From contig JAUVVS010000001.1 in NCBI GenBank assembly GCA_030604545.1, positions 1-29,813 of the forward strand: DNA of 29,813 nucleotides. The letters run 5' to 3'. Both the position numbers and the translations under genes were made by a program. The notes under the pieces were generated by a model. The model was not told the DNA's origin. It searched no databases and worked only from the letters and a program-made list of their open reading frames with translations. Each line of letters starts with the position of its first letter. The stretch's first letter is position 1. Source of the stretch: Deltaproteobacteria bacterium. Lineage in GTDB: Bacteria > Desulfobacterota > Desulfobacteria > Desulfobacterales > JAUVVS01. This document shows positions 8,068 through 26,280 of this stretch, piece by piece.

Positions 8068-9564
8068 ATGTCTATGGATACGAGTTGGAACACCAAGCGA
8101 ATTTATTTGGTCCTTTTTTCGATCCTGCTAATAGGGGGTTGTCTCAGGTTTTATCAATTGGGAGAGAAAAGTCTCTGGACAGATGAGCTGGTGGTAATAT
8201 CAAACGCTGTCAACCTTGTTGATATTAAATCTTTTCTTGCGCATACTCGTGGTGATGATTTGCCAAGGTTTTATTCCTTACTTTTTAAGTTCTGGATGTT
8301 TCTTGGTGATTCAGAGTTTACAATGCGTACACTTTCCGTCATATTTGGTTGTTTGTCCATTTTGGTAACATATGCCGTGTGCCGGCTTTTTTTTGATATT
8401 AAAACTTCTTTATCTGCGGCATTTTTAACAGCTATTTCCCCTTTCCTGTTGATCTACGATCGGGAAATCCGCATGTATTCTCTGTTCGCGCTTTTCTCCC
8501 TATTATCAACATATTTTTTCATCCGCTCTTTGAGAGAAGACAGAAAAGGTCTCTGGATTTTTTATACAGTTATAAATGTGCTGAACATTTATACACACTA
8601 TTATGCTTTTCTGGTTTTAGGAGTCCAGGGTTTGTTTGTCGTTCTTCGTTTTCGAGACTACAAAAAGATTCTTAAGCCCTGGATTGTGGCAAACGGGATC
8701 ATAGCTCTTGCCTTTACGATCCGACTTTCGGCCTTTATTCAGGACGTAGCATACCATGCCCCATGGGCGCTGCCGCGAGAGCGCTTCCCTTTTGTTTTCG
8801 GAAAGCATGTCGTCGAATTCTTTTATATCTTTTTTTCTCTTTCAGCAGGACAAACCATACTGCCCTGGAATCCTCTTGCCGTCCTGATTTGTCTTGCCGT
8901 GTTTGCGTGTTTTGCCGTCGCCGTCAAGAAGGGAATATCCTTTTCTCAGGACACACTGTATCTGGTTATGCTGGTTTTTATTCCCGTGGTAATCGGAATC
9001 GTATTCAGAATTTCCATGCCGCGGTACTTTATCTTTGCGGCGCCCGTTTTTTTTATGCTCATTGCCAGGGGGTTCTGGCTGCTTCCGAAGAAAGTGATGG
9101 TGATTACGGCTTTAATTATAGTAACAGGTTGGAGCTACGGGATTGCTAATTATTACCAGAATAAACAATTCCATATCATGGCTCATGTTGATCCCTGGAG
9201 AGAGGCGGCTCAATTCCTTAAAGAAAATGTGAAAAACAATGAGGAGATTGTGGGGATAGGGATTGGTGTTGTTCCCCTGCGCCATTATTATGGGAGTTCT
9301 GTCCCCGGATTTTCCGGCGAGGCACTGATAAAAAAAGTGCGGGAACTGGACGAAGCTGGAACTGGGAAGGTATGGCTGGTCTATACTTATCGTGAGGAAT
9401 ATGAGAATTGGCTGAAATCCCGTGATATTCTTAGTAAAAATTATAGCGTATTAAGCGAAAAAAGATGGGCACACGATCCTGATTTTGCATTGAAAAAGAA
9501 ATTTTTTAAGAGAACTTTCGCGCCCTATCGCATTGCAGCCGAACTCTATGAACGGAAAAAATAA
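8068..9564 (+). CDS. GT-C fold glycosyltransferase (GT39/GT83, PMT_2/ArnT-like), lipid-phosphate-sugar dependent
   Basis: LRFYQLGEKSLWTDE first-loop acidic motif, P.FY.LL..W, RTLSVIFG, SP..LIY.REIRMY, many TM helices and a soluble C-terminal domain. Alternative start TTG 8056. Confidence 0.85.
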   Translation: MSMDTSWNTKRIYLVLFSILLIGGCLRFYQLGEKSLWTDELVVISNAVNLVDIKSFLAHTRGDDLPRFYSLLFKFWMFLGDSEFTMRTLSVIFGCLSILVTYAVCRLFFDIKTSLSAAFLTAISPFLLIYDREIRMYSLFALFSLLSTYFFIRSLREDRKGLWIFYTVINVLNIYTHYYAFLVLGVQGLFVVLRFRDYKKILKPWIVANGIIALAFTIRLSAFIQDVAYHAPWALPRERFPFVFGKHVVEFFYIFFSLSAGQTILPWNPLAVLICLAVFACFAVAVKKGISFSQDTLYLVMLVFIPVVIGIVFRISMPRYFIFAAPVFFMLIARGFWLLPKKVMVITALIIVTGWSYGIANYYQNKQFHIMAHVDPWREAAQFLKENVKNNEEIVGIGIGVVPLRHYYGSSVPGFSGEALIKKVRELDEAGTGKVWLVYTYREEYENWLKSRDILSKNYSVLSEKRWAHDPDFALKKKFFKRTFAPYRIAAELYERKK

Positions 9565-9583
9565 ATTTAATAAGGAATGATTA

Positions 9584-10534
9584 ATGATGGGTAACATTTC
9601 CATAGTAGTGCCTTGCTATAATGAAAGGAACAACATACTGACAACGTATAAAGCGTTGAATGATGTGATGAAGTCTATTGGACTCAAGTTTGAGATCTTG
9701 TTTGTTGATAATGGTGGAACCGATGGGCAATTGGAAATAATGAAACAACTATATGAAAAATATCCTGGTACTTTAAAAGTTGTCTCACTATCTCGAAATT
9801 TTGGATATCAGATGTCAATTTCGGCAGGGCTTGAATTTGCTACGGGAGATGCAGTTGTAATCATTGATGCGGATCTCCAGGATCCTCCAGAATTAATCAA
9901 GGAATTTGTTGAAAAATGGAAAGAGGGATTTGACGTAGTTTATGGTGTCAGAGTTAAAAGGCAAGGCTCTTTTATTTTAAGATTTTTCTATAGAATGTTT
10001 TATTGGGTTTTTAATAAAACTGCGGACATTCCAATACCTTTAAACTCCGGCGAATTTGCATTAATGAACAGAAGAGTGGTTGATGAAATTAAAGCCATGC
10101 CGGAAAAAGTTCGTTTTATAAGGGGTCTGAGAGCATGGGCTGGATTCAGGCAGATTGGGATACCCTATAAAAGACTGCGCAGAGCTGAAGGAAAATCCCA
10201 ATTTAGTATTTTTGATAATTTTGTTTTAGCTCTCGATGGAATATTATCATTTTCAACGAGGATTCTCACATTTATGTCTGTTATTGGGTTTTTAATTACC
10301 CTGTTTTCTATAATTTTGCTTGTGTATATAGTATTGGGGAAGTTTTTTTCTGACATATTTGTGCCAGGTTATGCAGCTACTATGGTTACAATTTCTTTTT
10401 TCAGTGGCGTTATTATCGCAATGTTAGGTCTCATAGGGGCAAGTGTCGAACGTATATTTTTAGAGGTTAAGAATAGACCCAAATTTATAGTAAGGGAAAC
10501 CTGGGGGACGGATATACACAAGGAGCATGAATAA
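9584..10534 (+). CDS. GT2 polyprenyl-phosphate glycosyltransferase (GtrB/YfdH/ArnC-like) with two C-terminal TM helices
   Basis: SIVVPCYNE, FVDNG.TD, LSRNFGYQ, IDADLQDPPE, DVVYGVR, R..RF.RGL..W.GF, GKSQF, RP.FIV. Confidence 0.92.
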   Translation: MMGNISIVVPCYNERNNILTTYKALNDVMKSIGLKFEILFVDNGGTDGQLEIMKQLYEKYPGTLKVVSLSRNFGYQMSISAGLEFATGDAVVIIDADLQDPPELIKEFVEKWKEGFDVVYGVRVKRQGSFILRFFYRMFYWVFNKTADIPIPLNSGEFALMNRRVVDEIKAMPEKVRFIRGLRAWAGFRQIGIPYKRLRRAEGKSQFSIFDNFVLALDGILSFSTRILTFMSVIGFLITLFSIILLVYIVLGKFFSDIFVPGYAATMVTISFFSGVIIAMLGLIGASVERIFLEVKNRPKFIVRETWGTDIHKEHE

Positions 10535-10561
10535 AAAAGTTAAACATGGGCGGAGCTTTTA

Positions 10562-11119
10562 ATGGAATTTAAAAAAACAAAGTTAGAGGGTGTTTATATA
10601 ATAGAACCGAGTATCTTTGAAGATGACAGAGGTATTTTTATAAAAGCATATAATGACTCCATATTCGAAAATGCTGGCATAGAATTGGAGTTCAAGGAAA
10701 GCTTCTATTCCATCTCTAAAAGAAACGTGATTCGAGGGATGCACTTTCAGTTGCCGCCACATGATTATGCAAAGCTTGTTTATGTTACTGAGGGGGTTAT
10801 TGTTGATGTTGTTTTGGATATAAGAAAAAATTCTCCAACTTATGCAGAGTATATTTCTGTCCAGCTATCAAGCAGGAATGCGAGACAGATTTATATGCCA
10901 CAGGGATTTGCCCATGGGTTTGCTGTAATAAGCAATAGCGCGACTGTTACATATCTCCAGACAGCCATCCATTCACCTGAATATGATACCGGAATAAGAT
11001 GGGATTCGTTTGGGATGGACTGGAATCTAAAGAACCCCATTATATCCGAAAGAGACAGGAATTTCCCAAAGTTAGAAGAATTCGATTCCCCTTTTTTATA
11101 TAATAAAGGTCAAAAATGA
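10562..11119 (+). CDS. rfbC: dTDP-4-dehydrorhamnose 3,5-epimerase family (RmlC/RfbC); in this context possibly an AscE-like CDP-4-keto-sugar epimerase
   Basis: P.IFEDDRG.F, S.S.RNVIRGMHFQ, K.V.V..G...DV.LDIRKNSPTY, P.GFAHGF, GIRWD, ISERD. Confidence 0.9.
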   Translation: MEFKKTKLEGVYIIEPSIFEDDRGIFIKAYNDSIFENAGIELEFKESFYSISKRNVIRGMHFQLPPHDYAKLVYVTEGVIVDVVLDIRKNSPTYAEYISVQLSSRNARQIYMPQGFAHGFAVISNSATVTYLQTAIHSPEYDTGIRWDSFGMDWNLKNPIISERDRNFPKLEEFDSPFLYNKGQK

Positions 11120-12018
11120 AGATCCTTGTTACAGGCATTACAGGGTTTATTGGAAATCGTTTGGCCAGAGAGCTCCTGAAATACGAACATGAGATTTATG
11201 CTATCTTAAGAAACCCTGCTCTCAAAAATAAATATGAAAAAAAGAACATTAAATGTTTTGTGGATAACAATTCAATGGCAGATTTCATGAAATTTTTTGA
11301 AAGAGAAAAATTTGACGGTGTAGTTCATTGTGCCTCTTGTTTTTTAGTTGAACATAAGCCGGAAGAAATTAACGATTTAATTACCTCCAACGTTTTGTTT
11401 TCCACAAAACTGCTGGAATCATCTGTAAAAACCAATGTGGACTGGTTTATTAATACAGGAACATTCTGGCAACATTATGAAAACAAAGTTTATTCACCCG
11501 TCGATCTTTATGCGGCTACCAAGCAGGCATTTGAATCTATTGCAATGTATTACATGGAGATTTCCGAGATAACATTTGTCACTTTAAAGCTTAATGATAC
11601 GTATGGCCCAAACGACACAAGGCCTAAAATATTTAACTTGTTGAAAAAAATTGCTGAAACGGGTGCAACTTTAGGAATGTCTCAGGGGGAACAATATATA
11701 GATACAGTTTATATAGACGATGTTGTTGGTGCTTACGTTAGAATGATAGAATTATTACAAGGGGATAACAAAAAAAGGTTTAAAGGCAAATCATTCGCGG
11801 TGTCATCAGGCAATCTTGTGAAACTCAAAGAGTTAGCCGATATTTTTGAAAAAGTAGCTAAAAGGAAGTTAAATATAATATGGGGTGAAAAGCCATATCG
11901 AAAAAGAGAAGTAATGACACCGTGGAACAAGGGAACAAGAATTCCAGGATGGAAACCAAAAGTATCAATTGAAGAAGGAATTTCTGAACTGTTACGCGAC
12001 ACGGAAAATGATATGTAA
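11116..12018 (+). CDS. NAD-dependent epimerase/dehydratase family SDR, CDP-3,6-dideoxyhexose 4-reductase-like (RfbJ/RfbS/AscF-type)
   Basis: ILVTGITGFIG, FINTGTFWQ, LYAATK (YxxxK), DTYGP.D.R.K, Q..D..YIDDVV.AY; ATGA overlap with the epimerase gene. Confidence 0.75.
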   Translation: MKILVTGITGFIGNRLARELLKYEHEIYAILRNPALKNKYEKKNIKCFVDNNSMADFMKFFEREKFDGVVHCASCFLVEHKPEEINDLITSNVLFSTKLLESSVKTNVDWFINTGTFWQHYENKVYSPVDLYAATKQAFESIAMYYMEISEITFVTLKLNDTYGPNDTRPKIFNLLKKIAETGATLGMSQGEQYIDTVYIDDVVGAYVRMIELLQGDNKKRFKGKSFAVSSGNLVKLKELADIFEKVAKRKLNIIWGEKPYRKREVMTPWNKGTRIPGWKPKVSIEEGISELLRDTENDM

Positions 12019-12051
12019 AATCCTCAATGGTTATTAGGTTAGGGAAGTAAT

Positions 12052-13383
12052 TTGTATACTAAAGAATTCAGAACAGAAATGGTTAAAGGTTGGAATAACT
12101 ACCCCGCGGTACAGGGGAAAGTTTTTCGCCCTGAGCGCATAGGCGATCTGGTTGCCCTGATTGGCAGTAACGAAAAGTCGATTTTGGCAAGAGGGGGTGG
12201 AACAAGTTACGGCGATTCATCGATTAACAATGGCGGGATTAATGTTGATACCAGACGATTGAATAAAATGCTTCATTTTGATTCAGAACAAGGAGTATTG
12301 TATTGTCAATGCGGGGTTACATTGCAGGATATAAGCAGAGTCTTCATTCCTCAGGGGTGGTTTTTACAGGTAACACCGGGCACTCAATTTGCGACAGTCG
12401 GAGGCTGCGTAGCCACCGATGCGCATGGAAAGAATTGGAAAGCAGGATCATTTTGCAGTTTTGTTAAAGGGCTAAGTCTGATGCTTCAGGATGGAAGTAT
12501 TGTTTGTTGTGATGATAAGAATAATCCGGACATATTTTACAGCACCTTTGGCGGCATGGGCATGACGGGAATTATTTTAGATGTTCGTATCCAATTAAGA
12601 AAGATCAGCTCTTCACTCATAGATGTGGAAACAATCCAGTGCAGAGACCTGAAGGAATGTTTTGCGGTCCAATCTGAATCGATGGAATCGCACGAATATA
12701 TGTTCTGCTGGCTCGACTCCCATAAGGAAGGTGTCAATATGGGTAGAGGTGTTCTGCAGCGTGCCAATCATTGTTCGAATGGCCCTCCGATCTATAAAGA
12801 AAAGAGAAAGATTCATGTGCCTTTTTATCTGCCCAATTTTACGGTCAACACGTATTCGGTGGAAGCGTTTAATGCGGCTTATCATGCAAGTGTAGGGAAG
12901 AAAAATAGAAAAAAGGCATACATGATGGATTTCTTCTATCCGCTGGATTGTATCGCCAACTGGTATAGAGTGTACGGTAAGAGAGGTTTTCTTGAGTATC
13001 AGATGGTTGTGCCATCTGACGGAGCCTATGAAACTGTTTTTGAGATTCTTAAAGTCGTTACAAAATCAAAACTTGGGTCGACCGTAGCGGCCGTTAAACC
13101 TTTGTTGAATGCGAGGGGCGTGATGTCCTTTCCCATGGATGGATTTACTTTTGCGGTTGATTTTATGCCCGATCAAAGACTATGGCACCTCTTAGACACA
13201 TTGGACGAAATAGTTATTGCAAACGGAGGGAAAGTCTACCTTGCAAAAGATGCTCGTGTCAGCTCAAAGAATTTCAGAAAGATGTACTCAGAAACGTTAG
13301 ACAGGTGGGAACCCGTAAGACAAAAATATAATCCTGAGAATAGATTTTCATCAATGATGTTTAACAGACTCTACAAAGGCTAA
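12052..13383 (+). CDS. FAD-binding oxidoreductase, decaprenylphosphoryl-beta-D-ribose 2'-oxidase (DprE1)-like
   Basis: ARGGGTSYGD, VTPGTQFATVGGCVATDAHGKN, GGMGMTGII, FFYPLD, YGKRGFLEYQ, SFPMDGFTFAVDF, GGKVYLAKDAR, F.S...RL. TTG start with AGGGA upstream; ATG 12079 is an alternative. Confidence 0.85.
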   Translation: MYTKEFRTEMVKGWNNYPAVQGKVFRPERIGDLVALIGSNEKSILARGGGTSYGDSSINNGGINVDTRRLNKMLHFDSEQGVLYCQCGVTLQDISRVFIPQGWFLQVTPGTQFATVGGCVATDAHGKNWKAGSFCSFVKGLSLMLQDGSIVCCDDKNNPDIFYSTFGGMGMTGIILDVRIQLRKISSSLIDVETIQCRDLKECFAVQSESMESHEYMFCWLDSHKEGVNMGRGVLQRANHCSNGPPIYKEKRKIHVPFYLPNFTVNTYSVEAFNAAYHASVGKKNRKKAYMMDFFYPLDCIANWYRVYGKRGFLEYQMVVPSDGAYETVFEILKVVTKSKLGSTVAAVKPLLNARGVMSFPMDGFTFAVDFMPDQRLWHLLDTLDEIVIANGGKVYLAKDARVSSKNFRKMYSETLDRWEPVRQKYNPENRFSSMMFNRLYKG

Positions 13384-13393
13384 CGGACCGAAG

Positions 13394-14134
13394 ATGAATG
13401 TTGTAATAATTGGCGCAAGCTCCGGGATTGGACGAGAGGTCGCGCATGTTTTTTCTCAAGAAGGCCATAATGTTATATGTAGCTCCCGCGATGAAAAGGA
13501 ACTGGAATGGTTAGTTAGTGACTTAAAAATAAGATATGATTGTAGTGCCTGTGGAGTTCCGGTAGACGTAACGAACAATTCATCAATAAAAACTTTTATT
13601 GAAAAGATTTATGAGAATTTTACAATTATCGATTGCGTTATTGTCACTACCGGCACCATGCCGGGAAATGAAATGCCTTATTATGACGAACATGGACTAA
13701 TTAACACCACAATGACTAATTATGTTGGTATAGCTTTGATTCTTAATGAAATGTCTCGCCGAATGGCTAATAATAATTCCGGAATCATAATATGCCTGAG
13801 TTCGGTTGCCGGCGACCGTGGTCGCCAGAGCAATTTCATATATGGAGCTTCCAAGTCTGCCTTAAACACATATCTGCAGGGACTGAGAATGAAATTATAC
13901 AAACATAATGTTCGTGTCATTACCGTACTGCCGGGATATGTAGACACTCCCATGTCATATGGCACAGTTAAACAACGATATGCTGTTTCGCCACGCTATG
14001 TTGCCAGAAAAATTTACAAATTGACCAAAAGCAACAGAAATATTGTCTATATACCTCCGATTTGGTGGTTAATCATGAGAATAATCAGGTTTATCCCGGA
14101 AGCAATATTTAAAAGACTCAGTTCGGTTTTCTAA
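13394..14134 (+). CDS. SDR oxidoreductase, decaprenylphosphoryl-2-keto-pentose reductase (DprE2)-like
   Basis: IIGASSGIG, SSVAGDRGRQSNFIYGASK, PGYVDTPM, W..IM..IR.IPE.IFKRL; directly downstream of the DprE1-like gene. Confidence 0.82.
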   Translation: MNVVIIGASSGIGREVAHVFSQEGHNVICSSRDEKELEWLVSDLKIRYDCSACGVPVDVTNNSSIKTFIEKIYENFTIIDCVIVTTGTMPGNEMPYYDEHGLINTTMTNYVGIALILNEMSRRMANNNSGIIICLSSVAGDRGRQSNFIYGASKSALNTYLQGLRMKLYKHNVRVITVLPGYVDTPMSYGTVKQRYAVSPRYVARKIYKLTKSNRNIVYIPPIWWLIMRIIRFIPEAIFKRLSSVF

Positions 14135-14142
14135 ACCCAGGC

Positions 14143-14169
14143 AAGCGCATCATAAAGATTGTGCTTTTT
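14143..14169 (+). terminator. Possible weak intrinsic terminator or hairpin after the DprE2-like gene
   Basis: AAGCGCATC-ATAAA-GATTGTGCTT imperfect stem (one G-U pair, one bulge) ending in a short T run. Confidence 0.25.
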
Positions 14170-14217
14170 GCAATTTTCGCTGCGTAGCCATTATGCAAGA
14201 AACAAACTGATTTAAGG

Positions 14218-15864
14218 TTGAAGCAATTATTTATGAAGAATGATGGGTTGAAAAAGATATTCTATTTGAGCCTTTTGATAGTGTTTTTGGTGGGGATCTT
14301 TCTCAGAATTCAATTTTCTCCTGATATCAACTATGAAACTGATTCATTTCCTGTTCTTCTTGCCGCGAAGAGTATTTCTGAGACGGGTCAATATACTATC
14401 CCACCGATCAGACTGACAGACTATAATGGCAATTATCAATCACATCCCGGATGGGCTGTTGGATACTCCCTATTATTATCGTGTCTCTTCTCAATCTTCG
14501 GCTATGGAGAGACTGCTGCCCGTTGGGCAACCATTTTGATTTGTTCGTCTGTAATCCTGGTCATAGGAATTTTAGGAAATCGACTCCAAGGGAAGGGTGT
14601 GGGCATCGTAGCGGCTCTTCTCGTGGCAGTTAACCCGTTACTTCTTTGTATCAACGGAAGAATTTTGACTGCAAATATGGGTTACTGCTTTTTAGTTATG
14701 AGCATATCTTTCCTTTTATTAGGGACAATACGCAAGCAGGAAGATGTAAAATTTGTAAGTTCGGAAGAGTTAATAAACTCAAGGAAACTTCTCTTCTTTT
14801 TCTCGCTCTCATTCCTGTTTTTTGGATTCATGGTAATGGCAAGGGATGACTTTGCCATGTTTGTTTTTGTCTTTTTTATTGTTTTCTGGGGAATATTAAG
14901 AAAACCTGCTGAGAAGATTTCAAAAAACCGATTACTTAACTACGTAAAGCTTTCGGGAATAGCTGCCTCCTTCTTTCTTGTTGGTTATCTTCCTAATATT
15001 TACTTCAATTATAAGACTTACGGGAAAATTCTGACTTCGTCTCATTATGAATATGGTGGACGCCTGAGCCTCGAATATTTCCTAAAAGGAAGCAGCGGAG
15101 CTCTTGGTCTGCCAGGTTGGGCTGTTATTATACTTACTATTGTCATTTTTGCTTTTCCTGTTGTGAGTATTTTTTTTGTTTGGAAAAAGTCAAAAGCCGG
15201 GGCCCTGACAGGATCATTAATTGCCGTTATGGCATTGCCAATAATATTTATAAATGGATCATACCCTGTTACTTCGAGTGGGGCTTCTCCACGGTATATC
15301 ATTCCATTAATTCCCTTCGCATCAATTTTAGCAGGCATACTGATAGTCAAAAAAGATATAGTTGCCAAATTTCTTAAATATAGTTTCATAGCCTGCTTGA
15401 TTCTATGGCACAGCGCCCTTATATATCCACCAACGGCGCTTTTTAAACACTTTCCGAAACTTGCTTATTTTACACAATATTCGCCCTGGTATAATAGACA
15501 CAACTTTATTAATTATCCTCACCCTATTCGCGCAACCTTGCAGTGGGTGAAAAACAACACTCCACCAGATGCCATTATTCTAAGCGACTATGATTCCTAT
15601 CACTACTTTTTTTATGCCAAGCGTGATGTTATGAATCGCGAATGTGTTGAGGACGTAAAAAAGCAGCTTAAGGATAGGCCGGTGTTTTTTGTTGAAGACC
15701 ATCAAATTGTACGCCATCCTGATTCATTAAAAAATTGGAAAAAAAAGCTGATGGAAAACTCGATAATTCTGACGGAAAAAGACAGCATACCATTATTTAG
15801 CCCTGTAAAAGGTGAGGTGCAACTGAAAATCTATGAGTTAATCAGGACTGTCGGACAAGTGTAA
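14218..15864 (+). CDS. GT-C fold glycosyltransferase (PMT_2/ArnT-like) membrane protein
   Basis: GIFLRI...NYETDS acidic first loop, HPGWAVGY.LLL, ALLVAVNP, PRY.IPLIP, L.W.KNNTP.DAIILSD C-terminal domain. Start TTG 14218 or ATG 14233. Confidence 0.78.
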   Translation: MKQLFMKNDGLKKIFYLSLLIVFLVGIFLRIQFSPDINYETDSFPVLLAAKSISETGQYTIPPIRLTDYNGNYQSHPGWAVGYSLLLSCLFSIFGYGETAARWATILICSSVILVIGILGNRLQGKGVGIVAALLVAVNPLLLCINGRILTANMGYCFLVMSISFLLLGTIRKQEDVKFVSSEELINSRKLLFFFSLSFLFFGFMVMARDDFAMFVFVFFIVFWGILRKPAEKISKNRLLNYVKLSGIAASFFLVGYLPNIYFNYKTYGKILTSSHYEYGGRLSLEYFLKGSSGALGLPGWAVIILTIVIFAFPVVSIFFVWKKSKAGALTGSLIAVMALPIIFINGSYPVTSSGASPRYIIPLIPFASILAGILIVKKDIVAKFLKYSFIACLILWHSALIYPPTALFKHFPKLAYFTQYSPWYNRHNFINYPHPIRATLQWVKNNTPPDAIILSDYDSYHYFFYAKRDVMNRECVEDVKKQLKDRPVFFVEDHQIVRHPDSLKNWKKKLMENSIILTEKDSIPLFSPVKGEVQLKIYELIRTVGQV

Positions 15865-15888
15865 AATAAGATATTTATGAGAAGTATA

Positions 15889-18365: not shown

Positions 18366-19319
18366 ATGAGACAGATTAAACTACTTTCCGTTGTTGTCCC
18401 GTGTCATAATGAACAGGAAGTGTTACCGACATCTCACGGGAGATTAACGAAAGTATTACAATATTTAATAGCAAATAACAAAATATCAAATTATGAAGTT
18501 ATTTACGTTGATAACGGCTCGACGGATGATACCTTGCGAGTTTTGAAAGAGATTTTTGAGAATGACCTCCATATAAGAATTGTCGCCTTGAGGCGTGATT
18601 TTGGTTACCAGGGTTCAATTTCCGCTGGTTTGTATCATGCTCAGGGTGATGCGGTTGTCACGATAGATGCAGATCTGCAAGATCCCCCGGAGAAAATTGA
18701 AGAGATGATAAATTATTTTCAGGAGGGATACGATCTGGTTCTCGGTGTACGCGAGGATCGTTCCTCCGATTCTTTCTTAAAGCGAATCTTTTCTGAGGGG
18801 TATTATAAGTTAATAAAACTGATGGGAACTGAAGTTGTCCATAACCATGGAGACTTTCGACTAATGGCAAAATCATTAGTTGAAGAGTTCAATTCCCTTT
18901 CTGAAAGGAATCGTTTTATCAGAGCGATGATCTTGCAACTGGAATCCCATTACGCTCTGGTTTCTTATAAACGTGAAGTGAGAACTGCCGGCAAGTCAAA
19001 GTTTAATTTACGTTCATTGTTCTCACTCAGCCTTGATGGGATAGTATCGTTTAGCTATATGCCGCTTAGATTGGCATCCATGGCTGGTATATTTATGTGT
19101 TTATTTGCGATGGTGGGTGCAATCTGGGTTTTATATGTCAAGATTTCGGCCAACGTCGTTCCGGGTTGGGCTTCTACTTTGTTACCAATTTTTGGTTTGG
19201 GAGGATTTCAACTTCTTATTATGGGTTTAATAGGGGAGTATATTGGTAGATTATACATTGAGGTGAAAAAACGTCCTTTATTTGTTGTGAGGGAGGAATA
19301 TACACATGACGACACATAG
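18366..19319 (+). CDS. GT2 polyprenyl-phosphate glycosyltransferase (GtrB/YfdH-like), second copy
   Basis: SVVVPCHNE, YVDNGSTD, RRDFGYQ, IDADLQDPPE, GDFRLM, ERNRFIR, AGKSKF, two C-terminal TM helices, EYIGR.Y.EVKKRP. Confidence 0.92.
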   Translation: MRQIKLLSVVVPCHNEQEVLPTSHGRLTKVLQYLIANNKISNYEVIYVDNGSTDDTLRVLKEIFENDLHIRIVALRRDFGYQGSISAGLYHAQGDAVVTIDADLQDPPEKIEEMINYFQEGYDLVLGVREDRSSDSFLKRIFSEGYYKLIKLMGTEVVHNHGDFRLMAKSLVEEFNSLSERNRFIRAMILQLESHYALVSYKREVRTAGKSKFNLRSLFSLSLDGIVSFSYMPLRLASMAGIFMCLFAMVGAIWVLYVKISANVVPGWASTLLPIFGLGGFQLLIMGLIGEYIGRLYIEVKKRPLFVVREEYTHDDT

Positions 19320-20106
19320 AAAAGACATTCCTGTTGTTATTTTAGCGGGTGGCTTGGGAACACGGCTCAGGGAACAAACCGAATTCATGCCTAAGCCAAT
19401 GGTGCCGGTTGGAACAAAACCTATCTTATGGCACATTATGAAAATATACTCATATTACGGCTTTAGACGCTTTGTCATTTGTCTCGGATATAAGGGAGAT
19501 ACAATAAAAGACTATTTTTTGAACTATAGATTCAGAAACAGTGACTTTACAATTAATCTGAGTAAACATAACGATATTATTTTCAATAAATCTCACGAGA
19601 TGGATGATTGGCAGGTTACACTCGCAGATACGGGCATGAAAGCTATGACCGGATCGAGGATTAAGCAAATTGAAAAGCTCATTGATACAGACTGTTTTTT
19701 GCTTACATATGGAGATGGGGTAGCTGATGTTGAACTTGACAAGCTCATGAAATTCCACCAGTCCCATGGGAAGATAGCTACAGTGACCGGTGTGAGACCG
19801 CCATCGAGATTTGGTGAACTTCGTATAGAAGAGAATCAAGTCGTTGAATTTGGCGAGAAACCGCAAGTAGAAAGTGACATGATCAATGGCGGTTTTTTTG
19901 TCCTCAATCGAGAAGTATTTGGTTATTTGCGGAAAGACAATGAATGCACATTTGAAAGAGAACCCCTGGAGAAGTTAGCCGAAGATGGTCAGCTCATGGT
20001 TTACCATCATCCCGGGTTCTGGCAGTGCATGGACACACTTCGTGATATGGATCTACTTAATAAATACTGGGAAAACGGCGTTGCTCCCTGGAAAATCTGG
20101 GAATAG
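19306..20106 (+). CDS. rfbF: Glucose-1-phosphate cytidylyltransferase
   Basis: VVILAGGLGTRLREQT...PKPMV..G.KPILWHIMK.Y, DTG..AMTG.R, TYGDG, F.EKP, INGGFFV, GFWQCMDTLRD; RBS GGAGG. Confidence 0.95.
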   Translation: MTTHRKDIPVVILAGGLGTRLREQTEFMPKPMVPVGTKPILWHIMKIYSYYGFRRFVICLGYKGDTIKDYFLNYRFRNSDFTINLSKHNDIIFNKSHEMDDWQVTLADTGMKAMTGSRIKQIEKLIDTDCFLLTYGDGVADVELDKLMKFHQSHGKIATVTGVRPPSRFGELRIEENQVVEFGEKPQVESDMINGGFFVLNREVFGYLRKDNECTFEREPLEKLAEDGQLMVYHHPGFWQCMDTLRDMDLLNKYWENGVAPWKIWE

Positions 20107-20109
20107 GAA

Positions 20110-21072
20110 ATGATGCAATTCCTGAGTGGTAAAAGGGTTTTAGTGACCGGCGCTACTGGATTTATTGGGTCTCACCTTACGAGACGTCTCCACAAAGAGG
20201 GCGCAGAAGTCCATATTCTGATTAGGAAGAATAGCAATAAATTCAGGATTAAGGATATCATTGAAGATATTGTTACCTGGTATGGTGACGTAACCGATTA
20301 TCAATCATTATGTTCTTGTATTAACAATTCTAAACCGCAGATAATCTTCCACCTTGCAACCTTCAGAAATGTTGAAAGGGATGTAAAATTAATTGATTCA
20401 ATGATTGATACAAACGTTAAAGGTACGGTTAATCTTTTAAGATCTGTAATAGATGAAAAGATCGCGCTGGAATGTTTCATTAATACGGGGACCTGTGAGG
20501 AGTATGGTGACGTTTCCGCCCCGTTCCATGAGGATAGAAAAGAGATGCCGGTTTCTCCCTATTCGGCCAGTAAGGTTGCAGCAACATATTTCTGCCAGAT
20601 GATACATAAGACAATGGAATTGCCGATCGTTACACTCAGGCCGTTTCTTTCCTATGGGTCATACCAGGACACGGATATGATGTTTATTCCGTCTCTTATT
20701 AAACACTGCCTTGAAGGGAAGGATTTCCCGATGACCGAGGGCAACCAGACAAGAGAATTCAACTATGTCGATGATATTGTTGATGCATATATACTTACTG
20801 CCGAATGCCAGAATGCAGTTGGAGAAATCATCAATATTGGCAATGGTATTGAATACAAAATTAAAGATGTGGCAGAGCAAATTGTGAAGATGATGGGCAA
20901 TCCCATTCAACTTCTTTTTGGTGCCATACCCAAACGAGCCGGAGAAACGGAGCATTTTTTCTGCAGTAATGACAAGGCAAAAAATTTACTCGGCTGGACA
21001 CCTAAAACAACCCTGGATGTCGGTTTGAGGAAAACAATAGACTGGTATAAAAATAATTCAGGAATTTTTTAA
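20110..21072 (+). CDS. NAD-dependent epimerase/dehydratase family SDR, probable CDP-4-keto-(di)deoxyhexose reductase (paratose-synthase-like)
   Basis: GKRVLVTGATGFIGSHL, FINTGTCEEYG, SPYSASK, LRPF..YG, QTREF.YV.D..DA; directly follows rfbF. Confidence 0.75.
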   Translation: MMQFLSGKRVLVTGATGFIGSHLTRRLHKEGAEVHILIRKNSNKFRIKDIIEDIVTWYGDVTDYQSLCSCINNSKPQIIFHLATFRNVERDVKLIDSMIDTNVKGTVNLLRSVIDEKIALECFINTGTCEEYGDVSAPFHEDRKEMPVSPYSASKVAATYFCQMIHKTMELPIVTLRPFLSYGSYQDTDMMFIPSLIKHCLEGKDFPMTEGNQTREFNYVDDIVDAYILTAECQNAVGEIINIGNGIEYKIKDVAEQIVKMMGNPIQLLFGAIPKRAGETEHFFCSNDKAKNLLGWTPKTTLDVGLRKTIDWYKNNSGIF

Positions 21073-21095
21073 TTCCTGTTCGAGTGGCTAAAACA

Positions 21096-22133
21096 ATGAG
21101 CACTAACAGGTCAAATACGTTGATAATGTTGGTTGATTATAGGAATTTTTTTTATATGTCGGTTCGTCATAAAGATGCCAGCATGGATATCGAAGCATTA
21201 CGTGACTATTTCAACGATGAGGGATGGGAGTTAAATATAAAAAAGTATCCCGAAATTGATTTTAGAAATGAAAATTATCAGGGTAAAATTATTTTGTATC
21301 AATCATCGGAAGATCGAGATCTGTTTTATAAAAGTTATATTGAGGATGTATTGTTAGGTCTTGAACTCCAGGGAGCTATTCTCGTTCCAAAGTTTCATTA
21401 CTTTAGAGCTCATCATAATAAGGTCTTTATGGAGATTTTGCGAGATTTAAATAATCTCGAAGAAATTCACAATGTTAGATCAAAAAGCTATGGAACGTAT
21501 GAAGAATTTGCTCAAGAATTGTCTTTATTTCCATCAGAGTTAGTTTTAAAGCCCTCTGAAGGATGTGGCAGCAGTGGAGTCAGATTGCTAAAGGATGAAT
21601 CTTCAAAAAGAAGATATGCAAGAAGGGTGAGCAGGTCACTTCATCCAATCGATGCACTTAAAAACATTATCAAATATTATGTATGGCATCCTTATTTTAA
21701 AAAGTCGAATAATCGTAGAAAATTTACGATTCAAAATCATATTCCCGATCTACAAAATGATTATAAAATACTTATCTATGGAGATAAATACTATGTATTG
21801 CTCCGCCATAACCGTAAAAACGATTTCAGGGCCAGTGGCAGTGGACTCTTCGAATATAACGAAAATTTACCCGAGGGGTTACTGGATTTTGCCGAGTTAG
21901 TTTTCAATAGTTTTGAAACCCCGTACCTTTCCATAGATGTTGGGTTTAATGGGCACGAATTTTTCCTTATTGAGTTCCAGTGTTTACAGTTTGGAAACTA
22001 TACTTTGGAAAAATCCCCATTCTATTTTGCCAGAGAAGGAGAAAAATGGATAAAAATACAGGAGGAGTCAATTCTGGAAAAGGAATTTGCGAGAAGTGTA
22101 GTTCGATACGTTAATAAATTTATTGTTGCATGA
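21096..22133 (+). CDS. ATP-grasp fold ligase (RimK-like, polysaccharide-locus type)
   Basis: NKVFME, LVLKPSEGCGSSGV.L, IQNHIP.LQNDYKIL, R.NRKNDFRASGSG, YLSIDVG, FLIEFQ. GTG 21084 is an alternative start. Confidence 0.72.
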   Translation: MSTNRSNTLIMLVDYRNFFYMSVRHKDASMDIEALRDYFNDEGWELNIKKYPEIDFRNENYQGKIILYQSSEDRDLFYKSYIEDVLLGLELQGAILVPKFHYFRAHHNKVFMEILRDLNNLEEIHNVRSKSYGTYEEFAQELSLFPSELVLKPSEGCGSSGVRLLKDESSKRRYARRVSRSLHPIDALKNIIKYYVWHPYFKKSNNRRKFTIQNHIPDLQNDYKILIYGDKYYVLLRHNRKNDFRASGSGLFEYNENLPEGLLDFAELVFNSFETPYLSIDVGFNGHEFFLIEFQCLQFGNYTLEKSPFYFAREGEKWIKIQEESILEKEFARSVVRYVNKFIVA

Positions 22134-22176
22134 TAGCATTTTTCGCTAATTATAAGACCACGCGATCGGAAACCAG

Positions 22177-23658
22177 ATGAAAGTAAGTGTCGTAAAAACT
22201 AAAGTGCATTATCCGCCAGCACCATTTCACCCATCAGAACAATATCCTGAATATCCCTATTCCAAAGAGTCAATATCCACTCGAGAAAATCCGGTCTATG
22301 CTGCCGTTCGGAATGCGTTATATTTAATGGATTTGGACAGTGAACATTATGGTACGCCTGATTGGAATCCCTTTGGCGAATTTGTCAAAGAAGGGAGCCG
22401 TATTGTTATTAAACCTAATTTCGTCAATCATTACAATTTATCAATTGATGACCATTCGCATTTTGAGGCTTTGGTGACACAGGCATCGGTAATTCGTCCA
22501 CTTATCGACTATGTGATTATTGCCACTAAAGGAGAGTGTACATTAACAATTGCAGATTTGCCGATCCAGACTGCCGATTTTGATATGATAGTCAAGAGGA
22601 CCGGGCTTGACCAGGTGATTGAATTTGTTCTGGATAAAACTGGTGGGCGAGGAACGATCGGATTGGCTGACTTACGGAACTACCAGCTGATGATAGATCG
22701 ATCAGGAGCTATATTAGGTAGAAAGAAGCAGCCCGGAGATCCCCTGGATTATGCCTTGGTAGATTTAGGGAGTCACAGCAACTTAGTGCCAATAGAGAAA
22801 GATGTCCACTTGTTCCGTGCACCGGATTATAAAAATACTATCACAGTCAAAATGCATTCCAGTGGTGTACATTGGTATAGCTTATCCAGAACAATTCTAA
22901 AATCTGATTTTTTTATCAACGTCCCTAAATTAAAGGTTCATCGTAAGACGGGAGCAACATTAAGTTTAAAAAATGTTGTTGGTACAATTGGAGATAAATC
23001 GTGCTTACCGCATTATCGGGAAGGAGGACCGAACGCTGGTGGCGATGAACAGGCTGTTTCAACACTGATTAACTCATTGCGTGGACGACACTCTTTCACT
23101 TTGCGACGTCTTGGAAGAATTCCCTGGAGACTTATTATCCGTCCAGTGGGACGTGTATTGATGCGACTGAATCAAATGGCTCATAAGGATCAAAATTTAA
23201 TAAATGTTACAGGCGGTGACTGGTATGGCAATGATACAGTGTGGCGTATGGTACATGATATCAACTGCATTCTTTTTCATTCTGATGCTCAGGGGGTTCT
23301 ACACGATAAACCCCAAAGGCAATATCTAACAGTGGTCGATGGTATCATAGGAGGAGAGGGTGAGGGGCCACTCAGCCCAAGTCCGGTGGCTTCCGGGGTA
23401 ATTGTTGCTGGAATCGATCCGCTGGCAGTGGATATTTGCTGTACGCGATTAATGGGATTGGATTGGCGTAAAATTCCGCTGTTTGCCAAATATGATTCAT
23501 TCCAACGTTATACCTTTTCTAATTTCAATGATAATCCAGAACAAATTGAAGTGATTTTATCAGAAAATAATAAAATCATGAAACAACAAATAGATAACAT
23601 ACGTCCAGTACATAGTTTTGAGCCATCTCCGGGTTGGAAGAAGCATATTGAGCTGTAA
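22177..23658 (+). CDS. DUF362 domain-containing protein
   Basis: G.RIVIKPNFV.H, D.FINVPKLKVH.KTG.TLSLKN.VG, W.GNDT.WR, VVDGIIGGEGEGP, G.DPLAVD....LMG. Confidence 0.82.
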   Translation: MKVSVVKTKVHYPPAPFHPSEQYPEYPYSKESISTRENPVYAAVRNALYLMDLDSEHYGTPDWNPFGEFVKEGSRIVIKPNFVNHYNLSIDDHSHFEALVTQASVIRPLIDYVIIATKGECTLTIADLPIQTADFDMIVKRTGLDQVIEFVLDKTGGRGTIGLADLRNYQLMIDRSGAILGRKKQPGDPLDYALVDLGSHSNLVPIEKDVHLFRAPDYKNTITVKMHSSGVHWYSLSRTILKSDFFINVPKLKVHRKTGATLSLKNVVGTIGDKSCLPHYREGGPNAGGDEQAVSTLINSLRGRHSFTLRRLGRIPWRLIIRPVGRVLMRLNQMAHKDQNLINVTGGDWYGNDTVWRMVHDINCILFHSDAQGVLHDKPQRQYLTVVDGIIGGEGEGPLSPSPVASGVIVAGIDPLAVDICCTRLMGLDWRKIPLFAKYDSFQRYTFSNFNDNPEQIEVILSENNKIMKQQIDNIRPVHSFEPSPGWKKHIEL

Positions 23659-23661
23659 AAT

Positions 23662-24846
23662 ATGGTGAATTCCAACGAAAAGATAAGAATAATGCATTTA
23701 AACTCATACATTGGCTATGATGGTCCAAGCAGGGGGATCCTTGGCCAGATAAAGTATATGAACAGGAATAGATTCCAGCCCGTTATCTGCGAAATAAAAT
23801 CAACGAGACATCGGGAACTTATAAAAGTAATTGAAGATATGGGTTGTGAACATGTAAGCTTGTGTAGAAATAAATTCTATGATCTATACATAATCCTGAA
23901 ATTAGTATTGCTTCTCAAGAAGCAGAAAATTGATGTTTTAAACACCCATAATGCCATTGCCTGCTGGTACGGAAACATAGCTGCAAAAATCGCAAATATA
24001 CCCGTTGTGTTTACTCTCAGAAATAATCAGAGAGAGAATTACAAGTTGCTGTTAAAAAAAAGGTATCAGTCTCAAATTGCAATTATGCTTGACAGGTTCA
24101 CAATGAGGGTGGCTGACAAAATTGTTGCGGTATCCCAAAGATTAGAAAAGTTTTATATTGAGAATGAGGGCATACCTAAAGGGAAAATCATTACAATTAA
24201 CAATGCCATAGACTTAGAAACAATAGAACAATTTAAGAAGAATTATGACAGGGAAACCTTTAGAGCTGGAATGGGAATCGGGGGAGATATAACCGTCATA
24301 GGCATAGTCGGTGATCTTGTGGAGCGAAAGGGGCACGCTTGTCTGATCGAAGCCGCGAGAATTATATTAAAAACAAACGATAAGGTTGTCTTTCTAATCG
24401 TAGGAGATGGTCCCTTAAAGGCCGATTTGATTAAAAAAATTAATGATTATTCCATTTCTGATAACTTTGTTTTTACAGGGCATGTAAAGAATGTTTTTCA
24501 TCATGCGGCAGCGATGGACATATTCGTTTTGCCCTCTTTTGCAGAAGGAATTTCACGGGCACTGATGGAATCAATGGCAATGGGATTACCTTCAGTTTGT
24601 AGTCGTATCGATGGAAATTTGGAAGCCGTCAATGATGGTGAAACGGGGTTTATCTTTCCGGTAAACGACCATGAGTCCCTTGCCGATAAATTACTCTCTT
24701 TAATAAGAAATGAAAGGTTGAGAAAAGAAACAGGAGAAAAGGCGCGCGTGAAGGCAAAGGAAAAGTTCGATATGAGAAAGCTGGCGCGCGCGTACGAAGA
24801 GTTGTATATGGAACTGATTAATGAGTATTCCAACAGCAATAATTGA
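23662..24846 (+). CDS. Glycosyltransferase family 4
   Basis: D.LNTH, KIVAVS, I.NAID, G.VG.L..RKGH..LI.A, VGDGPL, D.FVLPS.AEGISRALMESMAMG.P.V (E-x7-E). Confidence 0.92.
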   Translation: MVNSNEKIRIMHLNSYIGYDGPSRGILGQIKYMNRNRFQPVICEIKSTRHRELIKVIEDMGCEHVSLCRNKFYDLYIILKLVLLLKKQKIDVLNTHNAIACWYGNIAAKIANIPVVFTLRNNQRENYKLLLKKRYQSQIAIMLDRFTMRVADKIVAVSQRLEKFYIENEGIPKGKIITINNAIDLETIEQFKKNYDRETFRAGMGIGGDITVIGIVGDLVERKGHACLIEAARIILKTNDKVVFLIVGDGPLKADLIKKINDYSISDNFVFTGHVKNVFHHAAAMDIFVLPSFAEGISRALMESMAMGLPSVCSRIDGNLEAVNDGETGFIFPVNDHESLADKLLSLIRNERLRKETGEKARVKAKEKFDMRKLARAYEELYMELINEYSNSNN

Positions 24847-24891
24847 TGTGACGATTGTTTTTCAAAAAAATATCGGGGGGAATATCGTAAT

Positions 24892-26280
24892 ATGCAGGTG
24901 GCAATAATTGGAGCGGGAATCGCGGGTTTGACATTAGCGAAAAGGCTTTCTGAATATGGCATCAAGACAGTGTTGATAGAACGGGAAAATGCGGTGGGTG
25001 GTTTGGCCCGTAGTTTTAAATATGATAATGGTGCTACCTTTGATATTGGTCCACATCGATTCCACACTGATGATCCCGAGGTTAATCAATTTATAATGGA
25101 AACGCTCGATGAAGACCATATTATCATTGACAGAAACAGCCAGCTATTCCTTTTTGACAAGTATCTCCCATGGCCTTTGACGCCCAAAGGTTTGCTGTCG
25201 TTACCTTTGCACCTGTTCATTCGTTCGGGGATCGACTTGTTCATGAGGCGAAAGGCCCGGACTGAATCTTTTGAGGACTATATCATTGAAAAATATGGTG
25301 GGACCCTGTACCAAGTTTTTTTCAAACCGTATACAGAGAAATTCATGGACTACGAATGTTCCAATCTGCATAAAGATTGGGCTACGACAGGCATCAACCG
25401 GGCCACCATTGACAAAAAAGTTGATACCGGTTCTTTAACTTCCCTGATCAAGTCAGTCCTGTTTGCTGGTGAAGCTGGTACAAAGTTCATTTATCCCAGA
25501 TCTGGGGGCATTGGCACATTTTCAGAGATATTGGCATCTAAAATTGAGAATTGTAATGGTCGCATTCTTTTGTCGACGCAAATAGCAAAATTTGTCTCAA
25601 ATGACCACAAAATTAGTACAATCGTAACCGATGTGGGTGAAGAGATCCCAGTAGAGCATGTATTCTGGTCGGGTTCTCTAATGTCACTCCGTTCGCTGGG
25701 CAACGCCCCGGAATTAGTTCCACGACTTCACTATATGTCCTCTATTTTCTTCAATTATTTAACGACTGCACAAATTGAACAAGGTTTCCAATGGTGTTAC
25801 TTCGGAGGTAAGGGGGCAGAAATAGACCGTGTCAGCGTGCCCCGAAATTTTAATCCGCAGTTGGTGCCTCAAGGGAAAGAGGGATTATGTGTCGAAGTCT
25901 CTTGCAACGAAGATTCGATTACTTGGAAGGATCCCGCGCGTTTGGATTGTATGTTGGAAACGTTTTTACTTCGGACCAACCTGCTCAATTCATTGGATCA
26001 AGTCGAAGACTACCATGTTGAGCATGTGCATGAGACCTATCCGCTGTATGTTTTGAATTATCCTCGCAAATTGAAGGCTATCTTTAATTGGGTCAACACA
26101 ACGTGGTCAAATATAACCCTGATTGGCCGCACAGGGCGGTTCTGGTACAACAATATGGACAACTCAATAGCCGCGTCGCTTCGCACGGCTGGAAGGTTTA
26201 TTAACGATTATAAAGAAGGTGCGTTGCGCCATGGAGACACATATTCAGCAGAAGATAGGTATCTGACAGGTAAAGATTAA
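24892..26280 (+). CDS. FAD-dependent oxidoreductase, NDP-pyranose mutase (UGM/Glf, WbyH)-like; often auto-annotated as protoporphyrinogen oxidase-like
   Basis: IIGAGIAGL FAD motif, ERE..VGGLARS, FDIGPHRFHT, FF.PYTEK, F.YP..GG.G, DRVS.P.NF, YP.Y, GRTGRFWYNNMD.SI. Confidence 0.75.
   Translation: MQVAIIGAGIAGLTLAKRLSEYGIKTVLIERENAVGGLARSFKYDNGATFDIGPHRFHTDDPEVNQFIMETLDEDHIIIDRNSQLFLFDKYLPWPLTPKGLLSLPLHLFIRSGIDLFMRRKARTESFEDYIIEKYGGTLYQVFFKPYTEKFMDYECSNLHKDWATTGINRATIDKKVDTGSLTSLIKSVLFAGEAGTKFIYPRSGGIGTFSEILASKIENCNGRILLSTQIAKFVSNDHKISTIVTDVGEEIPVEHVFWSGSLMSLRSLGNAPELVPRLHYMSSIFFNYLTTAQIEQGFQWCYFGGKGAEIDRVSVPRNFNPQLVPQGKEGLCVEVSCNEDSITWKDPARLDCMLETFLLRTNLLNSLDQVEDYHVEHVHETYPLYVLNYPRKLKAIFNWVNTTWSNITLIGRTGRFWYNNMDNSIAASLRTAGRFINDYKEGALRHGDTYSAEDRYLTGKD

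Follow-up and report, generated by a model that had tools for sequence, protein, structure and literature searches.

To our knowledge, the only established role of DprE1 and DprE2 is to epimerize ribose to arabinose on a lipid-linked pentofuranose that originates from phosphoribosyl pyrophosphate (PRPP). The pair is a major tuberculosis drug target, and in mycobacteria it belongs to the decaprenyl-phospho-arabinose pathway, which comprises the UbiA-type decaprenyl-phosphoribose (DPPR) synthase Rv3806c, the phosphatase Rv3807c, DprE1, DprE2, Rv3789 and glycosyltransferases of the GT-C fold (Emb/Aft). We also know of periplasmic three-component glycosylation only for a few common sugars, and the known donors of Gtr-type systems are UDP-Glc, UDP-GlcNAc and UDP-L-Ara4FN. 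Here we analyzed a 29,813-bp window, which is the whole of contig C225 and the longest contig of a Desulfobacterales metagenome-assembled genome (MAG; 1.97 Mb and 65% complete, with genome-wide negatives limited accordingly). It carries a DprE1/DprE2-like gene pair embedded among CDP-deoxyhexose genes, together with two family 2 glycosyltransferases (GT2) of the polyprenyl-phosphate type and two GT-C genes. We propose, with moderate confidence, that CDP-deoxy-sugars are loaded onto a lipid by the GT2 enzymes, epimerized at C2 on that lipid by the DprE1/E2-like pair and transferred by the GT-C enzymes, in two branches.

In Gram-negative glycan loci, DprE1/E2 homologues were reported always to act downstream of a UbiA-type polyprenyl-phosphoribose synthase (PPPRS) and to serve pentofuranoses, and the same authors are aware of no further epimerase in systems for side-chain glycosylation (Kelly et al. 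2024, PMC11127046). The Citrobacter youngae O1/O2 systems consist of PPPRS, a MATE flippase, a GT136 GT-C enzyme, and ORF13 or DprE1/E2 as auxiliary epimerases (PMC11127046). Our full-text literature searches returned no paper on GT2-coupled DprE1/E2 and none on lipid-carrier transfer of CDP-deoxyhexoses with on-lipid epimerization, in line with the initial annotation of this DNA, whose author knew of no described pathway with this architecture. The cassette in question occupies positions 8056-23658 of the window and contains 14 genes:

8056-9564, forward strand: GT-C #1, a polytopic PMT_2/ArnT-like protein of 502 amino acids (aa) (Pfam PF13231, E 1e-11; at least 7 hydrophobic segments)
9584-10534, forward strand: GT2 #1, a polyprenyl-phosphate glycosyltransferase of the GtrB/ArnC/PgfS type (full-length PgfS match, 250 bits; ArnC, 144 bits)
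10562-11119, forward strand: RmlC-type nucleoside diphosphate (NDP)-4-keto-6-deoxyhexose 3,5- (or 5-) epimerase (TIGR01221, 194 bits, cut-off 156)
11116-12018, forward strand: extended short-chain dehydrogenase/reductase (SDR) of 300 aa (Pfam Epimerase, E 9e-33; YAATK motif; 4-bp overlap with the RmlC gene)
12052-13383, forward strand: DprE1-like FAD oxidase (NF053785, 345 bits, cut-off 500; PF01565 and PF04030)
13394-14134, forward strand: DprE2-like classical SDR (NF053786, 146 bits, cut-off 250; adh_short, E 2e-39)
14218-15864, forward strand: GT-C #2, 548 aa, assigned by predicted fold (no Pfam match above threshold)
15943-17025, forward strand: RfbG/DdhB, CDP-glucose 4,6-dehydratase (TIGR02622, 489 bits, cut-off 278)
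16991-18352, forward strand: RfbH/DdhC/E1, CDP-4-keto-6-deoxyglucose 3-dehydrase (NF011936, 738 bits, cut-off 423)
18366-19319, forward strand: GT2 #2, a polyprenyl-phosphate glycosyltransferase between rfbH and rfbF (PgfS, 246 bits; ArnC, 162 bits)
19306-20106, forward strand: RfbF/DdhA, glucose-1-phosphate cytidylyltransferase (TIGR02623, 357 bits, cut-off 300)
20110-21072, forward strand: extended SDR of 320 aa, GalE/RmlB/Rmd type (Pfam, NCBIfam; PDB 6zl6, 6bi4, 2pk3)
21084-22133, forward strand: ATP-grasp-like protein of 349 aa, a lead only (Pfam ATP-grasp_3, E 0.019)
22177-23658, forward strand: DUF362 protein of 493 aa (PF04015, E 2e-27)

Like the mycobacterial pathway, this cassette pairs a homologous FAD oxidase with an SDR reductase, keeps the catalytic residues and adjoins GT-C enzymes of the kind that use polyprenyl-phosphate sugars. 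Unlike it, the window has neither a UbiA phosphoribosyltransferase nor a 5-phosphatase, its proposed loader is a nucleotide-sugar GT2, its DprE1 lies on a separate branch, and its likely sugar is a deoxyhexose rather than a pentofuranose. With the pentofuranose three-component systems, the proposed pathway would share periplasmic side-chain glycosylation from an undecaprenyl-phosphate (Und-P) sugar and on-lipid epimerization before export. However, in those systems a UbiA-type synthase uses PRPP at the outset and the products are Ribf, Xylf or Araf, whereas entry in the window would be by a GT2 with an NDP-sugar, and the window has no MATE or PPPRS gene. The Gtr-type systems (GtrA, GtrB and a further Gtr protein in Shigella and Salmonella; ArnC/ArnT; CsbB/GtcA/YfhO) likewise combine a GT2 bearing a DxD motif and two C-terminal transmembrane helices with a GT-C enzyme, and the window holds two such GT2/GT-C pairs in one locus. 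In contrast to them, the window GT2 genes are interleaved with CDP-deoxyhexose genes, an oxidase/reductase pair stands between loader and transferase, and there is no GtrA-type flippase. The CDP-3,6-dideoxyhexose pathways of Salmonella and Yersinia pseudotuberculosis (DdhA-D/RfbFGHI; Prt, Tyv, Abe, AscE/AscF, WbyH) share the RfbF, RfbG and RfbH equivalogs; the RmlC-type epimerase and reductase of the window resemble the AscE/AscF ascarylose branch, and a UDP-galactopyranose mutase (UGM)-like gene further downstream recalls WbyH. The window cassette differs from them in having no E3 (DdhD/RfbI), and in the enterobacterial pathways the sugar is added by a cytoplasmic Leloir glycosyltransferase from the CDP-sugar, with C2 epimerization (Tyv) taking place on the nucleotide sugar.

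The gene order of the cassette recurs on four metagenome contigs from different samples (L013/L014, L109, L110 and L111), with gene-by-gene protein identities to the window of 57-83%. Because the same order is found on four contigs, the arrangement is under selection and not a chance neighborhood. The DprE2-like SDR is 54-78% identical across the cassettes. We did not find the cassette in two genomes of the same genus, and a sample of 400 genomes of the phylum gave no DprE1 of its type; its occurrence is rare and patchy.

Homologues of the window DprE1-like protein split into those with at least 47% identity and a large generic group with no more than 42%. A tree of 93 sequences places the window protein in a 9-row clade with an SH-aLRT support of 100, with L038 as its sister at 95. 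The generic DprE1 loci, which made up the bulk of what the metagenome scan with the window DprE1 returned, served as the control set, and neighborhoods were classed by profiles that we derived from the data, with NCBIfam as a check; a search of genome contigs with the single DprE1 gave one locus. We examined 17 clade contexts, including the sister L038. A polyprenyl-phosphate-type GT2 lies within 5 kb of DprE1 in every one of them, and at most 130 bp upstream in 11. A UbiA phosphoribosyltransferase was found in none of the fetched flanks of the 17 contexts and none is present in the window, whereas among the 46 generic DprE1 loci with sufficient flank, 37 carry a UbiA gene no more than 6 kb away and in most cases adjacent. 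The UbiA proteins that we checked beside generic DprE1 match decaprenyl-phosphate phosphoribosyltransferase models, and five of the six genomic loci from the same order have the arrangement UbiA-DprE1-DprE2. A UbiA gene linked to the pair had been named beforehand as the observation that would speak against a GT2-loaded pathway; it is absent from the window and from the fetched flanks of all 17 contexts. The general route put forward in the initial annotation, from NDP-sugar through GT2 loading and on-lipid epimerization to a GT-C enzyme, is therefore supported by comparative genomics (17/17 coupled to a GT2, 0/17 to UbiA).

These counts bear directly on the classical alternative, in which an unlinked UbiA enzyme makes polyprenyl-P-ribofuranose, DprE1/E2 convert it to polyprenyl-P-arabinofuranose for the GT-C enzymes, and the CDP-sugar genes are mere neighbors. 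This is the sole demonstrated activity of the family (PMC11127046). Furthermore, the catalytic residues are kept, and a genome of this completeness could miss a UbiA gene. Nevertheless, UbiA is missing from the fetched flanks of all 17 clade contexts while generic homologues have it adjacent, the only UbiA of the host genome is MenA-like, and four pocket positions are altered in the clade, so that we regard the classical explanation as quite improbable.

The DprE1-like protein is homologous to solved DprE1 over its full length, with a PCMH-type FAD-binding domain and an ALO-like C-terminal domain, and its alignment to the solved structures of M. tuberculosis DprE1 has an E-value of 1e-59 (residues 13-440). 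The catalytic and FAD-site residues His132, Lys134, Gln336 and Lys418 (M. tuberculosis numbering) are all kept in it; among 44 clade sequences, Lys134 and Lys418 are invariant, His132 occurs in 42 and Gln336 in 43. In the same numbering, the clade differs from the generic group by R58T, H136W, S228(V)F and Q334E, with Gln at position 334 in all 84 generic sequences. Docking tables for structure 4P8C list Arg58, Ser228 and Gln334 among the pocket contacts of M. tuberculosis DprE1 (PMC9525719). Thr/Ala at the positions of M. tuberculosis Asn385/Cys387 was considered as a further clade marker and rejected, since generic non-actinobacterial homologues have Thr/Ala there too. The DprE2-like gene follows directly after an 11-bp gap, and its product, whose best model is the generic SDR PRK07102 (235 against a cut-off of 267), is the probable 2-keto reductase. 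The window and 12 other clade contexts have a DprE2-like SDR gene after DprE1 (13 of 17).

The clade contexts fall into three types. Type I is the cassette of this window. In type II (L112, a JGI contig, L017, L028, L113 and L038), the order is an RfbF-like gene, a 4,6-dehydratase, RmlC, a sugar C-methyltransferase, an SDR, the GT2, DprE1, usually DprE2 and sometimes PMT_2. The L017 cytidylyltransferase scores above its equivalog cut-off, and L112 encodes homologues of RfbF and RfbG (51% and 49% identity). Type III (L002, L015, L016, L018, L027 and a Logan contig) consists of a short GT2 (236-244 aa), DprE1 and DprE2. Types I and II both place a long GT2 next to DprE1, together with an SDR of the reductase type and an RmlC gene. 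A CDP-glucose-based deoxy-sugar pathway adjoins GT2-DprE1 in 11 of the 17 contexts, and the number of contexts with an RmlC gene beside GT2-DprE1 is likewise 11. As a separate observation, within a UbiA-coupled subclade of generic DprE1, L020 (255-3942; G035:C18), which comes from a genome of the same order, has a 495-aa fusion of a sugar-1-phosphate nucleotidyltransferase and an AglJ/dolichyl-P-hexose-transferase-like GT2 in place of UbiA directly upstream of DprE1-DprE2. Here the loader seems to have been replaced independently.

Both window GT2 proteins align with the PgfS and ArnC models along their whole length and contain a DADLQDPPE motif and two C-terminal transmembrane helices. GT2 #1 is 34-38% identical to the GT2 proteins encoded directly upstream of DprE1 in L017, L028, L112 and L113, and it is closer to those of L017 and L028 than is GT2 #2 (29-30%); it is our proposed loader of the DprE1/E2 branch. 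The GT2 #2 gene overlaps rfbF by 14 bp and holds the equal position in L013, L109, L110 and L111, and its product probably loads the D-dideoxyhexose that the 320-aa SDR finishes, as CDP-3,6-dideoxyhexose.

The pair had also been described as flanked by GT-C genes, and we found this to be correct. GT-C #1, upstream, is a PMT_2 protein and is the first cassette gene in L013 and L109, with a fragment in L110. For GT-C #2, downstream, an AlphaFold (AF2) model built with an alignment of relatives as input reached a pLDDT of 91.4 and a pTM of 0.92, whereas single-sequence prediction gave a pLDDT of 44. The top 44 PDB matches of this model in Foldseek are all GT-C enzymes, led by ArnT (5f15, E 3e-8), with OST, ALG12, AglB, PglB, Aft and Emb among the further matches. 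Of the 35 aligned sequences, GT-C #2 and its relatives, 29 carry PMT_2, and Asp42 is nearly invariant. The family is very small and has no Pfam model: a search of 1.84 billion representative proteins gave 11 relatives at E<1e-30. The model also predicts a β-rich soluble domain at the C-terminus (residues ~450-548).

In the sugar-nucleotide part of the cassette, the cytidylyltransferase, CDP-glucose 4,6-dehydratase and E1 3-dehydrase of a CDP-3,6-dideoxyhexose pathway all score above their equivalog cut-offs. RmlC does too, which confirms the four identities assigned initially. By their sequences, RfbF and RfbG are identified as the enzymes that would make CDP-4-keto-6-deoxy-D-glucose, and RfbH as the 3-dehydrase. 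The initial annotation further described two 4-reductase-like SDRs. Two extended SDRs are indeed present, but the reductase label is putative: the best solved relatives of the 320-aa SDR are a UDP-GlcA 4-epimerase and RmlB. Its GTCEEYG...YSASK motifs give a TxE...YxxxK pattern that resembles the reductase Rmd. We take it to be probably a 4-ketoreductase, with a nucleotide-level epimerase as the other possibility. The 300-aa SDR is probably an NDP-4-ketohexose reductase in an AscF/RmlD-like role, as judged from gene position.

Which of the two sugars the DprE1/E2-like pair modifies is indicated by what is conserved beside it. A pathway from paratose to tyvelose had originally been suggested, in which CDP-paratose, possibly converted to a furanose by the UGM-like enzyme, is lipid-loaded and then 2-epimerized by DprE1/E2. 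RfbF, RfbG and RfbH are present as this requires, the conversion of paratose to tyvelose is a C2 inversion, and the PDB matches of the 320-aa SDR at E<1e-20 include no close relative of CDP-tyvelose 2-epimerase. The flavoprotein with UGM motifs, together with the WbyH precedent (PMC5399914), also fits. However, the pair is conserved beside GT2 #1, RmlC and the 300-aa SDR, not beside GT2 #2 and the 320-aa SDR; type II cassettes have no RfbH, yet RmlC is always there; and a homologue of the UGM-like gene turned up in none of the related loci that we fetched. Moreover, like tyvelose epimerase, the 320-aa SDR is a GalE/RmlB-type protein, which makes the initial statement that no CDP-tyvelose 2-epimerase is recognizable too strong. 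The route would also require the pair to work on the product of GT2 #2, for which the neighborhoods give no indication. We therefore consider the paratose-to-tyvelose route improbable. In a more parsimonious reading, suggested by the conserved adjacency, DprE1/E2 would serve the branch of GT2 #1, RmlC and the 300-aa SDR, giving an L-configured sugar.

The UGM-like gene lies downstream of the cassette, 11 kb from DprE1/E2:

24892-26280, forward strand: UGM-family flavoprotein of the PRK07208 type (best PDB relatives UGMs; 4dsg, E 8e-14 over residues 3-370)

Its GPHRFHT, FFKPYTEK and GRTGRFWYNNMD motifs align to bacterial and T. cruzi UGMs, and it has the marks of the family, with an FAD Rossmann fold, a histidine loop and a C-terminal GRxxxYxYxxMD motif. 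Against the Glf equivalog TIGR00031 it scores 50.7 bits, far below the cut-off of 304, and its best model is the PRK07208 'hypothetical protein' (213 against 389). For WbyH, a mutase role in the formation of paratofuranose has been predicted (PMC5399914), as the initial annotation had it, and the window protein is a possible NDP-sugar pyranose/furanose mutase with a tentative link to the cassette. No homologue of the gene was found in any related locus fetched, the syntenic contigs ending before its position, and a furanose assignment is not supported.

From the homology of these enzymes we infer the steps of loading, oxidation, epimerization, export and GT-C transfer. In the first branch, the RmlC-type epimerase and the 300-aa SDR would turn the CDP-4-keto intermediate into an L-6-deoxy or L-3,6-dideoxy hexose of the rhamnose/6-deoxytalose or ascarylose type. 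With RmlC acting ahead of RfbH, a 6-deoxy-L-manno or 6-deoxy-L-talo sugar would be possible; with RmlC acting after it, a sugar of the ascarylose type. GT2 #1 would then move the L-deoxyhexose to undecaprenyl phosphate, the DprE1-like FAD oxidase would oxidize the C2 hydroxyl of the lipid-linked sugar, and the DprE2-like SDR would reduce the resulting ketone from the other face, for a net epimerization at C2. A flippase would export the product, and a GT-C enzyme would attach the sugar to the glycan in the periplasm. In the second branch, RfbH and the 320-aa SDR would yield a CDP-3,6-dideoxy-D-hexose, which GT2 #2 would load onto lipid for the second GT-C enzyme. Such a scheme would have a chemical rationale: sugars derived from CDP-D-glucose should keep the gluco configuration at C2, so that after RmlC only the L-manno and L-talo series would be reachable, and inversion at C2 on the lipid would open the L-gluco and L-galacto (or L-ribo) deoxy-sugars. 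As a tentative generalization, which we hold with less confidence than the scheme for this locus, the GT2-coupled DprE1/DprE2 clade may be a general C2 epimerase for Und-P-linked 6-deoxy, 3,6-dideoxy or 3-C-methyl L-hexoses made from CDP-D-glucose.

Several observations weigh against this proposal. Both DprE1-like and DprE2-like proteins score below the NCBI equivalog cut-offs, and CDP-sugar use by the GT2 enzymes is putative. An E3 reductase (DdhD/RfbI/AscD; ferredoxin-NADP-reductase (FNR) type with a 2Fe-2S domain) was found neither in the window nor in the syntenic cassettes. No cassette gene encodes a dedicated flippase and there is no intergenic room for one; a search of the genome, which is 65% complete, gave no GtrA (PF04138), and MATE and SMR were not searched genome-wide. 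The same incompleteness makes an unlinked UbiA gene possible. Additionally, the window encodes two GT4 transferases of the Leloir type, which could take CDP-sugars directly, type III contexts have no adjacent sugar-nucleotide genes, so that the clade need not use one sugar type, and L017 (10001-12303) and L028 (9980-12399) have a clade DprE1 without an adjacent DprE2-like SDR.

Concerning the missing E3, two NAD_binding_1 (FNR-type) proteins are encoded elsewhere in the host genome, on C87 and C134. The DUF362 protein was considered as a stand-in electron donor and dropped, as it has five cysteines and no Fe-S cysteine motif. Orthologues of this protein and of the ATP-grasp-like protein are present in L013 and L110, and the two genes follow the 320-aa SDR in every cassette that reaches that far (the window, L013 and L110), DUF362 being two open reading frames (ORFs) in L013. 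The language-model features of the 349-aa protein resemble RimK-type ATP-grasp at 0.98, which we treat as a lead only. With regard to export, a 110-aa ORF between DprE1 and the SDR in L113 (6838-7170) might encode a small membrane protein or flippase.

The GT4 genes and type III contexts are also grounds for another explanation, in which the GT2 enzymes load common sugars (UDP-Glc, UDP-GlcNAc, UDP-Gal or GDP-Man), DprE1/E2 epimerize a lipid-linked hexose (Glc to Man, or Gal to Tal), and the GT4 enzymes use the CDP-deoxy-sugars in the cytoplasm, as in enterobacteria. The short-GT2 subclade has GT2-DprE1-DprE2 in the absence of adjacent CDP-sugar genes, there are two GT4 genes in the window (1083-2204 and 23662-24846), and the characterized GtrB, ArnC and DPMS enzymes are all known to use UDP or GDP donors. 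This explanation fits less well with the embedding of a GT2 gene between rfbH and rfbF, with the rfbF overlap, in five cassettes. In compact type II modules, of which L112 is an example, the genes extend from the cytidylyltransferase via GT2, DprE1 and DprE2 as far as PMT_2, and a Leloir glycosyltransferase is absent; three unrelated GT2 lineages accompany the clade, each beside its own sugar genes. We therefore consider loading of common sugars unlikely, though deserving of more weight than the other alternatives.

The two loci without an adjacent DprE2 raise a different question, because there oxidation need not always lead to epimerization. The next gene after DprE1 is RmlD-like in L017 and GT4-like in L028, and the fate of the 2-keto product may differ in these loci. 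The DprE1-like oxidase might accordingly make a lipid- or nucleotide-linked 2-keto sugar, either as the end product or for further amination or branching, with the adjacent SDR in some other role. Class III aminotransferases in both loci would fit this possibility. In contrast, the DprE2-like SDR stands directly after DprE1 in the window and 12 other clade contexts and is well conserved across the cassettes (54-78% identity), and we give this explanation very little credence. C2 epimerization on the lipid by the DprE1/E2-like pair remains our preferred reading.

The window as a whole is best explained as a surface-glycan locus, of the O-antigen or capsule type, of a Desulfobacterales MAG. All 26 window genes are on the forward strand with small gaps or overlaps, and every gene named in the initial annotation is present at or near its stated position, with gaps of 0-85 bp or overlaps. 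The RecA of the host MAG, in which no rpoB was found, is 95% identical to a Desulfobacterales MAG protein, from which we take the host to be a diderm of Thermodesulfobacteriota. Mis-binning or recent foreign origin of the contig was considered and rejected, as the contig agrees with the MAG in GC content (41.4%, against 40.6% for the MAG) and in its tetranucleotide profile, whose correlation with the MAG (0.973) is at the median of 35 contigs of at least 10 kb. Besides the UGM-like gene, the genes outside the cassette include the following:

1083-2204, forward strand: GT4 gene, Leloir-type (Pfam)
2226-4887, forward strand: sugar C-methyltransferase (Methyltransf_13/14), NUDIX protein and Gmd-like SDR, upstream of the cassette
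4912-8062, forward strand: CDP-glycerol glycerophosphotransferase-like protein (524 aa), then a Wzy_C (O-antigen ligase/polymerase-like) membrane protein, preceding the cassette
23662-24846, forward strand: GT4 gene, Leloir-type (Pfam)
26286-29813, forward strand: S-adenosylmethionine (SAM) methyltransferase, overlapping B12-binding radical SAM enzyme, then a polytopic membrane protein running off the contig

The genes at 2226-4887 are kept in L013 with 57-84% identity. Their C-methyltransferase family also occurs inside type II GT2-DprE1 modules, and a Gmd-like homologue (44% identity) adjoins DprE1/E2 in L015. Both genes at 4912-8062 are likewise kept in L013, and the end of the Wzy_C gene overlaps the start of GT-C #1. 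In L015 and the Logan contig of P0018, too, genes for B12-radical-SAM enzymes are located close to DprE1/E2. The language-model features of the 3'-terminal membrane protein place it near the RgtA-D-like, DUF6541 and AftA_N GT-C-like families, which is a lead only.

If the proposal is true, the stereochemistry of a deoxyhexose would be edited on its lipid carrier, and rare CDP-sugars would be added to the glycan outside the cytoplasm. Deoxy-sugars of the L-gluco, L-galacto and L-ribo series, beyond the reach of nucleotide-level pathways from glucose, would become accessible, and C2-inverted L-deoxyhexoses are predicted in the glycan. Epimerization of a hexose on the lipid and periplasmic transfer of CDP-derived sugars by a GT-C enzyme would each be described for the first time, and the cassette would offer a compact enzyme set for glycoengineering. 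It would thereby extend the concepts of on-lipid epimerization by DprE1/E2 and of three-component periplasmic glycosylation.

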